64,000 nucleotides of DNA from Dehalococcoidia bacterium (GTDB lineage Bacteria > Chloroflexota > Dehalococcoidia > UBA6926), in the NCBI GenBank assembly GCA_034428515.1, contig DAOUHQ010000015.1:144660-208659 (forward strand), given 5' to 3'. Under the pieces are notes generated by a model. It saw only the letters and a list, made by a program, of their open reading frames with translations, did not search any database and was not told the DNA's origin. The position numbers and the translations under genes were made by a program. Below are positions 36,094 to 49,462 of this stretch, one piece after another (position 1 is the stretch's first letter; every line of letters begins with the position of its first letter).

Positions 36094-36111
36094 GCAGTGG
36101 GCAGAGGGGAT

Positions 36112-36155
36112 GTGGCCCTGCAGGCCACGCGGTGGATTCCGGCCTCCGCCGGAAT
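36112..36155. terminator. two adjacent stem-loops (GTGGCC-ctgca-GGCCAC and ATTCCGGC-ctcc-GCCGGAAT) between convergent genes
   Basis: Inverted repeats seen in sequence; no clear U-tract. Confidence 0.3.
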
Positions 36156-36193
36156 GACGGAGCCTCATGGATTGCGGCTGTAACGGCCATTGG

Positions 36194-36727
36194 CTAGGTT
36201 GAGTATCTTATCTCCCGTGTTCCATCGGCTCTTGAAGTGAGTATTTCCCTTCCGGGTTCAATTGGCCCCCACACATGCTCGAGTACATCTTCCTCTTCTT
36301 CCAAGTTGGCGCAAACCCACACGTGGCACTCAGGCAAGCTACCCTCAGATCGTGAATGGAAAGCGAAGGCTGCTGCGGCTCCCGTATTTTCTGGGTCAAG
36401 CAGAGGGTTTGAGACGCCGCCCCAGTCCATAACCAATCCAGCTTTGCGCGATTCACCCCTCGCCAGCTTCACTTCGATAGACCCTGCCGTGACCATGACC
36501 TCGCCCTCGCTGCTATCTACTTTGAGTAGAAATTCCATTCTGGGCTTGCTCTCTTTTGGATTGTCTAGTTCCGGGAGGAATTGCAATAGGAGCTTTCGTG
36601 GAATCCTCGGCCCCGGGTTGCGTCCACCCATTGCCATAGTGTCTCTGCCAGACAGCCGTTTTACCCACCAAGATTCGGTATGCTCCCATTGTTCGTTTAG
36701 CCAGTCGTAGAACTTTTGCGAGTGCAA
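36194..36727 (-). CDS. stand-alone EcoRII-N-like (B3-like) DNA-binding effector domain protein
   Basis: Residue-level resemblance to the N-terminal effector domain of EcoRII as I recall it: FYDWLNE, VKRLSGRDTMAMGGRNPGPRIP, LLDPENTGAAAAFAF, HVWVCANLEEEEDVLE. The gene is AT-rich. Confidence 0.6.
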   Translation of the reverse strand: MHSQKFYDWLNEQWEHTESWWVKRLSGRDTMAMGGRNPGPRIPRKLLLQFLPELDNPKESKPRMEFLLKVDSSEGEVMVTAGSIEVKLARGESRKAGLVMDWGGVSNPLLDPENTGAAAAFAFHSRSEGSLPECHVWVCANLEEEEDVLEHVWGPIEPGREILTSRADGTREIRYST

Positions 36728-36778
36728 TTAGTCCCTCCAATCTCTATTGCAGCGAAAGCCGCTTTCTGTGGGGCGAAT

Positions 36779-37588
36779 TCATCCAAGGAATATGTTCTCA
36801 CGGTGATACGCGAGGAATTCAGGATGCGGTCTGAATTTTTCGGGGGGAGAGATTGCTTGGCCGTCATAGGACACAACGCTCTGAACGAAGAACTCATCCG
36901 CGCTTGATATGTGACTCTTCGCTACCCTAACAACCAATTCTTCATCGATGGTGATGAATCCGCGATCAAATGCCTTGTCATGGAGGGCAGAAAGCAGGAG
37001 TCCATTGCGTGGGTTGAGTCTATTCGTTTGGTTGATTTTCCACGGCACAATATGGCTGGCCACAAGCAGCGGCTCCAGAGTGAGTCCCGAGATGCAGCAC
37101 CTGTAGTTGTAGGAGCTAAGCAGCGCGTCTCGGAAGAAATCTTGACCGACTCGCCGAGTAGTGAACACCTCTCGTTCAGTGAGGCGATGCTCCACGTCTT
37201 CGTCCTCTGTGTCAGTAGTAGTATCCCTCTCTCTGAGTAACCCGTAGTCGTGGAGTGCCACAGTGGCTTCCTCTACAAAGGCCGTCCAATCAGAGTTCAT
37301 CTCAGCCCAGATGGCACGGTCACCGGTTGACACGTTTCTGAGCCCCGAGATTCCTCGCCCTCTGAGACCGGGATCAAGGCTTGCAAGGTTCACAAGTTTC
37401 ATCGCAACAGCGCTGGATGTTCTTGCGATTGCCTGCGCTACAGTTACGACCTCAGGATTGCGCGAGTGCATCTGACCAAATGAAATGCGGCAGTAGAGAT
37501 TGAGGATGATAAGCAACTCTGCGCGCGTCCACCGGCGTCGGGGAGACGGGCGTTGCGAGTTGTCCGAGTTTCGTCCTTGATTGACCAC
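36779..37588 (-). CDS. HNH endonuclease (HNH_2-type) with an uncharacterised N-terminal domain of about 140 aa
   Basis: Catalytic motif CISGLTLEPLLVASHIVPW...NGLLLSALHDKAFDRGFITID. AT-rich; 51 nt upstream of the EcoRII-N-like gene on the same strand. TTGTGA-16-TATAAT promoter-like elements at 37617-37595. Confidence 0.75.
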   Translation of the reverse strand: MVNQGRNSDNSQRPSPRRRWTRAELLIILNLYCRISFGQMHSRNPEVVTVAQAIARTSSAVAMKLVNLASLDPGLRGRGISGLRNVSTGDRAIWAEMNSDWTAFVEEATVALHDYGLLRERDTTTDTEDEDVEHRLTEREVFTTRRVGQDFFRDALLSSYNYRCCISGLTLEPLLVASHIVPWKINQTNRLNPRNGLLLSALHDKAFDRGFITIDEELVVRVAKSHISSADEFFVQSVVSYDGQAISPPEKFRPHPEFLAYHRENIFLG

Positions 37589-38513
37589 GCGGCAATTATA
37601 GGCACTTAGCTAAGATTCACAATAAGTGTGGGGAAACTGAGGCTTTGGATTCCTCGGCTGCGCTCGGAATGACATGGGAAACTGCATCATCGGACGCGAC
37701 TCACCCTGTGGTCAGCGGCAGCGTGCCCCCCCAATGTGACACCCCCGCCTTGACCCATCCCAAACGCCTGTCCTAAAGTCACCCACAACAAGCCATACCC
37801 CCGGCGGTGGGGAACGTCGACAACCCCGCCGTCACCTATCCCCGGGAGCGCAAAAAGGAGGGCGCGCCCTGCAAGGAACGCATCCGCTGTCAGGATTCCG
37901 AAGTTAACCTGCGGGAGAACGCGGCTATGCGGTCGCATAAGGCCGTAAGCGACAGCGCCCCGTCCAGATGCCTCCACCGTCCCCAGGCCAACGCCGCGAC
38001 CCGAGCGGGGGCGATGAGAGAAGACGCGTGCTCCACACGGGTCGAGACCCGAAAGGCCTCAGGCAAGTGGAGCGCATGGCGCCCGATGATGACGTGGCAG
38101 CATCAGCGGGCGAGCACGGATCAACCGTCTGGCATGCGCTCGTATGTCAGGCGAGGGACGGACTCTCGGCCACGCCAAAAAACGCAGACCGAGAACTGAC
38201 GCGCGAACAGTGCCACCATGCTGCTCGCGCGCCACACGGGCGAGTCTATGTTTGGCGCAGCGCAACCCGCCCAAGCGCAGGGCCGTCCCCCTGGCGCGAC
38301 CCCACCCGAGCTCGAAACCGCGCGCCAACCGACCCCAACCCACAGCCCCGGAACCGACAGCGGATGCGTTCCCCAAGCCCCGCCAAACCAAATCATCAGG
38401 AAGGAGAAACCCCACAGCACTCAAAGACAAAATCCCCCCCGTGCGGGGAAAGGCTAGCTGACATCTACAGGAATGACGGAGGTAGTGAGGCGCGGGGATG
38501 ACGGAGAGTGGCG

Positions 38514-40490: not shown

Positions 40491-40928
40491 ATGCGCGTCA
40501 TGGTTCTGATTAAGGCGACCGCCGAGAGCGAGGCGGGAGTTATGCCGTCCACGGAGCTGCTTGAGGCCATGGGCAGGTACAACGAGGAGCTTGTGGAGGC
40601 GGGCGTGATGCTGGGTGGCGAGGGGATCAAGCCCTCTGAACACGGCAAGCGCGTTGTGCTTGACGGCGATACGAACACTGTCAGTCACGGTCCTTTCGCT
40701 GAGACAGATCAGCTCATTGCCGGTTTCTGGATCTGGCAGGTTGCGGACATGGATGAGGCGGTGGCGTGGGTAAAGCGGTGTCCGCAGCCAATGCCGGGAA
40801 TGGCGGAGATCGAGATTCGGCCGCTCTACGAGACGGAGGATTTCACACCGGAGATGACGGAGGAGCAGGCGGCGCGGGAGAACGAGTTACGGGAGCGTGT
40901 AGCTGCGACGGAGTCCGGACCCCAATGA
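40491..40928 (+). CDS. YciI-like (Dabb fold) protein
   Basis: MRVMVLIKATAESEAG...AGFWIWQVADMDEAVAW matches the YCII-related domain. Confidence 0.7.
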   Translation: MRVMVLIKATAESEAGVMPSTELLEAMGRYNEELVEAGVMLGGEGIKPSEHGKRVVLDGDTNTVSHGPFAETDQLIAGFWIWQVADMDEAVAWVKRCPQPMPGMAEIEIRPLYETEDFTPEMTEEQAARENELRERVAATESGPQ

Positions 40929-49026: not shown

Positions 49027-49462
49027 GGGTTGAGCAGGAACGGGATCCGGTTGCACTCCATGTTCAAGATTCCCGCCGTCACGGGAATGACGGAGATGGG
49101 TTGGGGTATACTTACGTCAAGCAAAGTTTTGGAAACGGTTCAAATGAACTCTTTCACACACTAGGAGGTGCCTTACGACCCCTGAAAATACACAACCACA
49201 AGCGTCTACCGATGAACTCCGTCCGTGGCGCGAGGGCAGCGAACGCATCGCTATCTTTATTGACGGCAGCAACTTATATCACGCATTAGAAGAATCTTGC
49301 AGCCGGACCGATCTTGATTTCGCGGCTTTCATCCAGTGGATCGCGGGGGAGCGTCCGCTCTTTCGCACGTATTACTACAACATCATCCAGGATGAGAAGC
49401 GCCGCCCCACCGAATTCGCGCAACAGCAGCGGTTCTTACAGGCTCTGCACCTGATCCCCTAC

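Follow-up and report, generated by a model that had tools for sequence, protein, structure and literature searches.

The 64,000-nucleotide stretch of Dehalococcoidia bacterium DNA analyzed here (contig DAOUHQ010000015.1, positions 144,660 to 208,659; hereafter the window) contains two adjacent genes, one for an HNH nuclease and one for EcoRII-N, the B3-like effector domain of the restriction enzyme EcoRII, which here is a protein of its own. We propose, with a probability of about 0.6, that this pair is a surviving core, preserved by selection, of an EcoRII-type 5-methylcytosine (m5C) restriction-modification (RM) cassette, with HNH acting as an autonomous nuclease and EcoRII-N as an exapted accessory. 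Comparison with related loci shows that the ancestral cassette comprised, in this order, a C5 methylase, an optional Vsr gene, HNH, and an EcoRII gene in which the N-domain was still fused to the PD-(D/E)XK catalytic domain (EcoRII-C). This Dehalococcoidia lineage appears to have lost the DNA coding for the methylase and for EcoRII-C. What would remain is a single operon, in which a promoter-like site is followed by HNH, a 51-nt spacer and an EcoRII-N gene that ends in the old interdomain linker. Substitution patterns show that both proteins have been kept by purifying selection in this C-less and methylase-less state.

An earlier note on this DNA had called the two open reading frames (ORFs), and we find both at the positions it gave, on the minus strand, with the HNH gene first and 51 nt between its stop codon and the EcoRII-N start. 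A scan for terminator-like sites between the two genes found none. The GC content of the islet is 0.51-0.55, compared with 0.62-0.66 in both flanks, in line with the AT-rich islet described in the note. This composition, together with the mobility of the pair among at least four genomic contexts outlined below, supports the proposal of a horizontally acquired cassette. A six-frame hidden Markov model search revealed no coding potential for EcoRII-C, a C5 methylase or Vsr in the 64-kb window, no trace of a C5 methylase was found 5' of HNH in the window, and a crude motif scan of the window detected no amino-methyltransferase motif pair. The statement that the window holds no methyltransferase thus stands.

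Profile searches place the small protein where the note had placed it, in the EcoRII-N/B3 family. The 177-aa protein matches Pfam EcoRII-N (PF09217) with E = 6.7e-24 (84.9 bits, cutoff 25) over residues 19-164, spanning profile positions 6-150 of 154, and the solved EcoRII N-domain (3hqf, 1na6) with E = 1e-18. In a library of 1.84 billion proteins the domain occurs in 218 clusters only; about half of the best 150 of these are ~400 aa long, and many have a length of 160-225 aa. A word-indexed protein search yielded only nine proteins closely related to the small one (147-192 aa), all from Chloroflexota/Dehalococcoidia metagenome-assembled genomes. The HNH protein matches Pfam HNH_2 (PF13391; E = 4.9e-12, 46 bits, cutoff 21), as the note had predicted, and the PADLOC model PDLC04132 'HNH' over its full length (E = 7e-102). 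The best Protein Data Bank (PDB) match of its HNH domain is VcaM4I (6yex, E = 7e-14), and there is a weak NCBIfam match to PT-DNA_restrict. Residues H179, N192/N195 and H203 are invariant in an alignment of 25 HNH homologues. The N-terminal portion, which the note took to be an unrelated domain, is shared by a family with 4,670 detected homologues, in which both domains are conserved at ~50% identity across phyla. The protein is not R.NmeDI of the Neisseria pheS-pheT site, as this enzyme has 351 aa and its paper mentions no HNH. A ScoA3III/Septu PtuB-like identity is likewise unsupported; that protein is another HNH, encoded beside an ATPase.

We compared the pair to related loci and found the missing parts of the cassette in several stages of decay. 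In L004, a full 221-aa EcoRII-C directly follows EcoRII-N in another reading frame; several contigs, among them L004 (12x) and L115 (2x), come from long-read assemblies of low coverage, in which single frameshifts may be sequencing errors. In L001, L002 and L016, an EcoRII-C remnant is left that lacks its first ~65-85 residues, and from which an internal deletion has taken out the catalytic-lysine/recognition block. A C5 methylase fragment covering the motif I region is located 5' of HNH in L001/L016 and L004, and methylase remnants occupy this position in L001, L004, L020, L022, L029, L031, L076 and L080. Those of L004 and L001 share 88-90% identity with the methylase of L115, compared with 51-67% with proteobacterial HNH-linked methylases. 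L115 is the closest full-length EcoRII relative, and it occupies the same chromosomal position as the islet of the window: its flanks match window positions 41696-38500 and 36097-34850 at 84-87% identity. Here, between rhodanese/tRNA-synthetase-like genes and a periplasmic binding protein gene, L115:3481-6203 encodes three intact proteins, a methylase of 346 aa, a Vsr of 151 aa and an EcoRII of 400 aa. More distant EcoRII-N relatives (~40% identity) all come with a methylase, Vsr and a fused N+C EcoRII, and with no HNH. The site in the window is thus a polymorphic defence islet with alternative alleles. The L115 cassette at the same site and the identity of the methylase remnants together indicate that the islet and a complete EcoRII-type system are alternatives at one site, and that the HNH-EcoRII-N adjacency was inherited from an EcoRII-type cassette. 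The purpose-built two-component system by which the note had explained this adjacency is therefore not needed, since relatives show the arrangement C5 methylase-HNH-EcoRII(N+C) in successive stages of decay. The note had also allowed for an ordinary, merely fragmented Type IIE system; no methylase or EcoRII-C is found within the window, whereas relatives do carry remnants of both.

In a neighbour-joining tree rooted on fused EcoRII relatives, L004 with its full C-domain and L001 with its C remnant, which is still ~61% identical to the C-domain of L004, are positioned among C-less lineages. This nesting indicates that the C-coding DNA has been eliminated at least three times, with N left intact. 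We calculated dN/dS, the ratio of nonsynonymous to synonymous substitution rates, by the Nei-Gojobori method with a Fisher test, using only pairs with unsaturated dS. All such pairs give values of 0.13-0.23 for EcoRII-N. The comparisons among window/L006/L007 and between L003 and L017 yield 0.16-0.18 (Fisher p 2e-10 to 2e-6), with p ranging from 3e-8 to 2e-10 among window/L006/L007. None of these three loci has C, and their EcoRII-N genes have a common truncated 3' end; their divergence has therefore accrued in the free-standing state. The DNA-reading arms of EcoRII-N (residues 27-42 and 77-100) and its core are equally constrained. For HNH, dN/dS is 0.08-0.20, so both genes of the pair described in the note are under purifying selection. 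At least 11 intact EcoRII-N orthologues of 172-192 aa were found, and intact ORFs of this size persist down to 45% identity. We considered whether the EcoRII-N ORF could be a non-functional fragment of a broken EcoRII that is still open by chance, as its TTG start codon, its end in the old interdomain linker, and the C remnants and frameshifted C of relatives might suggest. This appears highly improbable: the ratios of 0.16-0.18 come from C-less lineages, the ORF has stayed intact across this divergence, its Shine-Dalgarno sequence is kept, and C has been removed repeatedly with N intact. The dN/dS tests lead us to reject a pseudogene.

The CCWGG bases are read in E. coli EcoRII by residues N28, H36, Q37, Y85, R94, E96 and R98 (PMC2770665). 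The window protein has R28, R36, N37, A96 and L98 at these positions; R94 alone is clearly kept, and Y85 falls into a poorly aligned stretch. N28, H36 and Q37 are present in L115 and L104, and L104 also has the R-x-E-x-R of the C-arm, as judged by eye from the translation. Because most base-reading residues are replaced, CCWGG specificity of the window EcoRII-N is doubtful, and the CCWGG-directed function suggested by the note should not be assumed. The protein is likely a DNA-binding protein with a specificity other than CCWGG, as far as its residues allow one to judge. The frequency of CCWGG is not informative as a footprint of past restriction: the observed/expected ratio in the window is an unremarkable 0.85, and the absence of sites from the 1.6-kb cassette is marginal.

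EcoRII-N could instead have been retained for a role unrelated to HNH, as a site-specific regulator or as an anti-addiction or immunity factor that neutralizes incoming EcoRII-type enzymes. The complete methylase-Vsr-EcoRII allele at the same chromosomal site in L115 would provide such an enzyme, the gene is under purifying selection, and a free-standing EcoRII-N gene without an upstream HNH does exist. Moreover, the most conserved EcoRII-N blocks (WWxKRLSxxDT, LLDPENTGA, VWVCA) include strand B1 and helix H2, the elements that mediate auto-inhibition in EcoRII. We nevertheless regard this explanation as unlikely. The N-domain of the window shares 42% identity with that of L115, which makes cross-inhibition doubtful, and the equal constraint on arms and core points to DNA binding rather than solely to protein-protein inhibition. 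In addition, the EcoRII-N gene stays with HNH in all 12 loci of the window's clade.

We surveyed the HNH family in 80 species-representative loci, those with the best scores among at least 575 candidates, so that the proportions describe this sample rather than the whole family. HNH is intact in 78 of the 80. A full C5 methylase lies directly 5' of HNH in four (L023, L040, L049, L091), a partial one in eight, and none in the other 68. The 3' ends of the full methylases overlap or abut the HNH start, and three of the four match Pfam DNA_methylase with E values of 1e-77 to 1e-81. EcoRII-C is found 3' of HNH in full in 4/80 and split or partial in 10/80, and HNH stands alone in 50/80. An adjacent methylase, which is indispensable in a classical Type II pair, is thus missing or degraded next to most of these intact nucleases. 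As indirect evidence on whether cleavage depends on modification, the HNH gene has been kept with no methylase in 66-76 of the 80 loci and coexists with an intact neighbouring one in four. The occurrence of intact HNH beside full, decayed or no methylase suggests that the enzyme attacks neither unmodified host DNA nor cassette-methylated DNA. A classical Type II role would therefore be ruled out, unless a methylase acting in trans is common. Because HNH persists when both methylase and the EcoRII nuclease are gone, unlike classical restriction enzymes, the family probably has a different activity. Most likely, HNH is an autonomous nuclease, Type IV or otherwise non-self-directed, that would be aimed by its homeodomain-like N-domain.

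Proteobacterial relatives have the form methylase-HNH-S-EcoRII-C, where S is a 105-aa protein (MNIRFEYLYRDAGNFKNWGE…DHxWHE…) whose gene starts ~10 nt after the HNH stop. Among the 80 loci, L023 alone has every part intact, with methylase, HNH, S (L023:5481-5798) and a 233-aa EcoRII-C. S is present in 13/80 loci from several phyla (L020, L022, L023, L030, L033, L040, L045, L046, L049, L055, L064, L073, L074). It is intact in all 13, together with an intact HNH, and its dN/dS is ~0.1-0.17. The EcoRII-C that follows is intact in one of them; seven have a broken or partial copy, and five have none and continue with housekeeping genes. S has no match in Pfam, PADLOC or PDB, and a diverged EcoRII-N is ruled out by an hhalign probability of 0.4%. 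Taken together, the gene in the second slot after HNH, be it EcoRII-N or S, is kept with HNH in 18 of 19 occurrences while methylase and EcoRII-C decay. The EcoRII-C genes found 3' of HNH in the survey have varied N-terminal parts. L075:5842-7098 carries a fused, unannotated 236-aa region, and L067:5918-6631 and L077:5720-6475 have an extension of 60-80 aa only, with no methylase nearby and with flanking FtsX-type permease genes. In L077, the HNH gene is broken and EcoRII-C is intact.

The position of HNH in the cassette raises the question of whether it replaces Vsr, as a stand-in or as a very-short-patch repair helper that nicks T:G mismatches arising from 5mC deamination, with EcoRII-N as a passenger. 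HNH fills the slot between methylase and EcoRII that Vsr holds in L102-L111 and L115, all of which are arranged methylase-Vsr-EcoRII and have methylases 56-68% identical to the HNH-linked ones. The end of the methylase gene and the start of HNH overlap in the manner of dcm and vsr, and a nickase acting in repair would do no harm whether a methylase is present or not. On the other hand, HNH has a true Vsr as its immediate neighbour in L025, L068 and N. gonorrhoeae (L095), so the two are not mutually exclusive, and this weakens a simple non-orthologous replacement. Most HNH loci have no C5 methylase nearby, which would leave a 5mC-specific repair enzyme without an obvious substrate. The HNH protein also has no Vsr (PF03852) match in our profile search, and we know of no HNH mismatch nickase. 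We thus consider a repair role decidedly improbable. The gonococcal locus (NZ_CP119142.1; L095:3956-5747) has the order pheS, Vsr, a broken C5 methylase, HNH and pheT, and its HNH homologue is intact (249 aa, 42% identity). NZ_CP119142.1 is a chromosome filed as a plasmid in PLSDB.

The adjacency of the pair in other genomes, a check proposed in the note, is conserved. The order HNH, EcoRII-N, with both genes on one strand and ~50 nt between them, is found in the window, L001/L016, L003, L004, L005, L006/L015, L007, L017, L018, L019, L097 and L101, and thus in no fewer than 12 loci and four genomic contexts according to context look-ups and a genome scan. The window and L007 differ in context, and their homology is limited to positions 37540-36184 and thus to both genes only. 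A REP-like hairpin repeat, dispersed in these genomes, coincides with its edges. The HNH and EcoRII-N operon thus appears to recombine and to relocate as a unit. Within the operon, a patch of the HNH N-domain has a different history. Window positions 37230-37480 are 90-96% identical to L097 and 60-68% to L006 in a sliding-window comparison, whereas the remainder of the cassette is 82-94% identical to L006/L007 and 62-80% to L097. Consistently, dS between the window and L006 is 1.0 for HNH and 0.26 for EcoRII-N. These values show that HNH N-domain alleles are exchanged independently of the EcoRII-N allele, and such shuffling is of the kind seen for the specificity domains of defence genes.

These observations bear on a dedicated two-component restriction or defence system, in which EcoRII-N would be a trans-acting sensor that licenses HNH or auto-inhibits it until triggered, the RM cassette having been no more than an evolutionary cradle. 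The operon organization, the joint movement of the pair between contexts, the purifying selection on both genes and the retention of the second-slot gene while methylase and C decay all speak for it. The descent from a methylase-HNH-EcoRII cassette fully accounts for the adjacency, however, the HNH N-domain recombines independently of EcoRII-N, and HNH is intact and solitary in 50 of the 80 loci. Dependence of HNH on EcoRII-N, as the note envisaged it, is not compatible with these solitary genes. We hold this explanation to be possible but doubtful. The same caution applies to a broader version, in which HNH and its second-slot protein (EcoRII-N, or S in Proteobacteria) would form an unrecognized two-component nuclease module that was born in EcoRII-type cassettes and outlives them, with the small DNA-binding protein gating or targeting HNH in trans; this we can suggest only tentatively. 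For a toxin-antitoxin-like pair, with the small protein neutralizing HNH, the second-slot retention is circumstantial evidence, and the 50 loci with HNH alone speak against an obligatory antitoxin.

We thus favor the surviving-core interpretation, in which EcoRII-N, now a separate DNA-binding protein of B3 fold, would have been exapted with a change in sequence specificity. It would most likely serve as an accessory of HNH, either targeting or restraining the nuclease, and S may play an accessory part in the same slot of the proteobacterial cassettes. Among the roles considered for EcoRII-N, an HNH accessory would rank before an independent regulator or immunity factor against circulating EcoRII-type enzymes, and this in turn before a passenger. 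Several points weigh against this interpretation. The link of EcoRII-N to HNH is one that we infer from comparative genomics, a partner is evidently not required by the solitary HNH genes, and another lineage has a free-standing EcoRII-N without HNH upstream. The independent swap of the HNH N-domain argues against tight co-adaptation of HNH with EcoRII-N. No modified-base reader domain of the SRA, PUA/EVE, SBD, NEco or DUF3427 type was recognized in the HNH protein. The first separation of N and C may have been a single event, given the weak support for deep nodes in the N tree. Finally, 64 kb of the genome are visible here, and a methylase or EcoRII-C could possibly be encoded elsewhere.

We compared the pair to known systems. 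With EcoRII (Type IIE, CCWGG), M.EcoRII/Dcm and Vsr it shares the homology of the small protein to the N-terminal B3-like effector domain, and homologues of the C5 methylase, Vsr and EcoRII-C occur in related cassettes. It differs in that the window has no EcoRII-C or methylase, that the N-domain is a separate gene, and that an HNH gene is part of the cassette. The marks of a Type IIE EcoRII-type system (EcoRII-C, C5 methylase, most CCWGG-reading residues) are thus missing within the window. In UbaLAI, EcoRII-N is fused to an MvaI-like domain (PMC5766183), and NsnA of the Menshen system has EcoRII-N-type N-domains (PMC12065111). These enzymes likewise use EcoRII-N as a portable DNA-binding module with various effectors, but there the module is fused to its partner, whereas here it is a free-standing gene beside HNH. 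The modification-dependent HNH_2 endonucleases VcaM4I, TagI and ScoMcrA/SprMcrA belong to the same catalytic domain family, and their genes are usually solitary, as HNH often is. The placement of our HNH inside an m5C cassette has precedent in BwiMMI and EfaL9I, modification-dependent restriction endonucleases described as embedded beside a C5 methyltransferase and a Type II restriction endonuclease (PMC6765204). Unlike in these enzymes, the N-domain of our HNH is a homeodomain-like helical bundle rather than SRA, PUA/EVE or SBD, and modification dependence is a candidate property. The methylase+HNH Type II-like modules (PADLOC PDLC04132, PDLC03546) and the gonococcal Vsr-methylase-HNH locus contain the same HNH family. 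HNH directly follows the C5 methylase in L023, L040, L049, L091 and Neisseria. In contrast to such modules, the methylase is absent or degraded in 76/80 loci with HNH intact, which is the reverse of classical RM-pair decay.

The positions of the genes, signals and repeats are summarized in Table 1. A dispersed repeat with the core CTCCGTCATTCC forms hairpins of the type CATTCCGGCGGAGGCCGGAATC; copies bracket the cassette and are also found in L003, L007, L018, L019, L097 and L115. The upstream-edge repeat is also found 5' of the methylase-Vsr-EcoRII cassette in L115. The core 12-mer occurs five times in the window, always on the minus strand (36151-36162, 38470-38481, 38495-38506, 40797-40808, 49084-49095), compared with 0.45 copies expected. 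With these five copies and others in related genomes, it is a dispersed element resembling repetitive extragenic palindromic (REP) sequences, and we rejected att sites or transposon ends as an explanation for the flanking repeats.

Table 1. Features of the HNH/EcoRII-N cassette and its edges (window coordinates).
Feature	Position	Strand	Remarks
HNH nuclease gene	36779..37588	minus	269 aa, GTG start; ORF call
EcoRII-N gene, free-standing B3-like effector domain	36194..36727	minus	177 aa, TTG start; 3' end corresponds to former N-C linker
Shine-Dalgarno-like GGAGGG	36733..36738	minus	5 nt 5' of the EcoRII-N TTG start; read from sequence
Sigma-70-like promoter TTGTGA-16 nt-TATAAT	37595..37622	minus	directly 5' of HNH start; consensus scan 10/12; pattern match only
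HNH_2 catalytic core, residues 164-215	36944..37099	minus	Pfam HNH_2 match
HNH N-terminal domain, residues ~20-115	37244..37531	minus	all-helical, homeodomain/Myb-like three-helix fold
Recombinant patch in HNH N-domain	37230..37480	minus	L097-type allele in otherwise L006/L007-type cassette; sliding-window identity
REP-like dispersed repeat, upstream cassette edge	37628..37678	minus	blastn matches L007, L018, L019, L003, L097, L115
REP-like hairpin repeat (…CTCCGTCATTCCGGCGGAGGCCGGAATC…), downstream cassette edge	36107..36162	minus	blastn matches L006, L007

Just 5' of the cassette, the window has a segment of ~830 nt (37679-38490) without counterpart in the syntenic loci L006, L097 and L115. 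Its GC content is high, its plus strand shows a strong skew of A over T, and a perfect inverted repeat of 17 nt lies within it (37875-37891 / 38356-38372). We found no convincing ORF in it and no Rfam, tandem-repeat or phage match, and it may represent an insertion resembling a miniature inverted-repeat transposable element or a non-coding RNA. In some relatives, the pair is located among further defence or toxin genes. A CAP12/PCTIR TIR-domain protein is encoded directly 5' of HNH at L005:4028-4969, and a Fic gene and a DarT-Macro (DarTG-like) pair are located near HNH/EcoRII-N at L004:4189-7780. In the TPR-ECH-cob context (L001:131-1021, L003:1-881, L101:1-728), a 296-aa protein with HK97/phage-capsid-like Pfam matches (Phage_capsid, SU10_MCP), possibly an encapsulin or the remnant of a prophage, adjoins large TPR proteins.

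The components described here are known families, namely EcoRII-N, HNH_2, Dcm-type methylase, Vsr and EcoRII-C, and PADLOC already models this HNH. The literature we searched contains no conserved pairing of EcoRII-N with this HNH family, no free-standing EcoRII-N kept by selection after loss of its catalytic half, and no report of HNH and a second-slot gene outliving their host RM cassette. The note's view that the architecture is undescribed thus holds for the pairing, which is however the reduced core of an EcoRII-type cassette rather than a design of its own. If our interpretation is correct, the pair documents survival at the level of a domain after RM decay, in that selection has preserved the regulatory, DNA-binding half of a Type IIE enzyme in the form of a separate gene. 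It would then be a natural example of the exaptation of a restriction-enzyme domain, the catalytic DNA having been lost in at least three lineages. If instead the two-component explanation were true, an allosteric effector domain of a restriction enzyme would have been re-wired onto a different nuclease. Our analysis would also flag a widespread uncharacterized nuclease family that combines a homeodomain-like domain with HNH_2, whose role could be tested in N. gonorrhoeae, a genetically tractable organism. The free EcoRII-N and the 105-aa S protein would be candidate partners of this nuclease, and their pattern of retention predicts a functional coupling with HNH.

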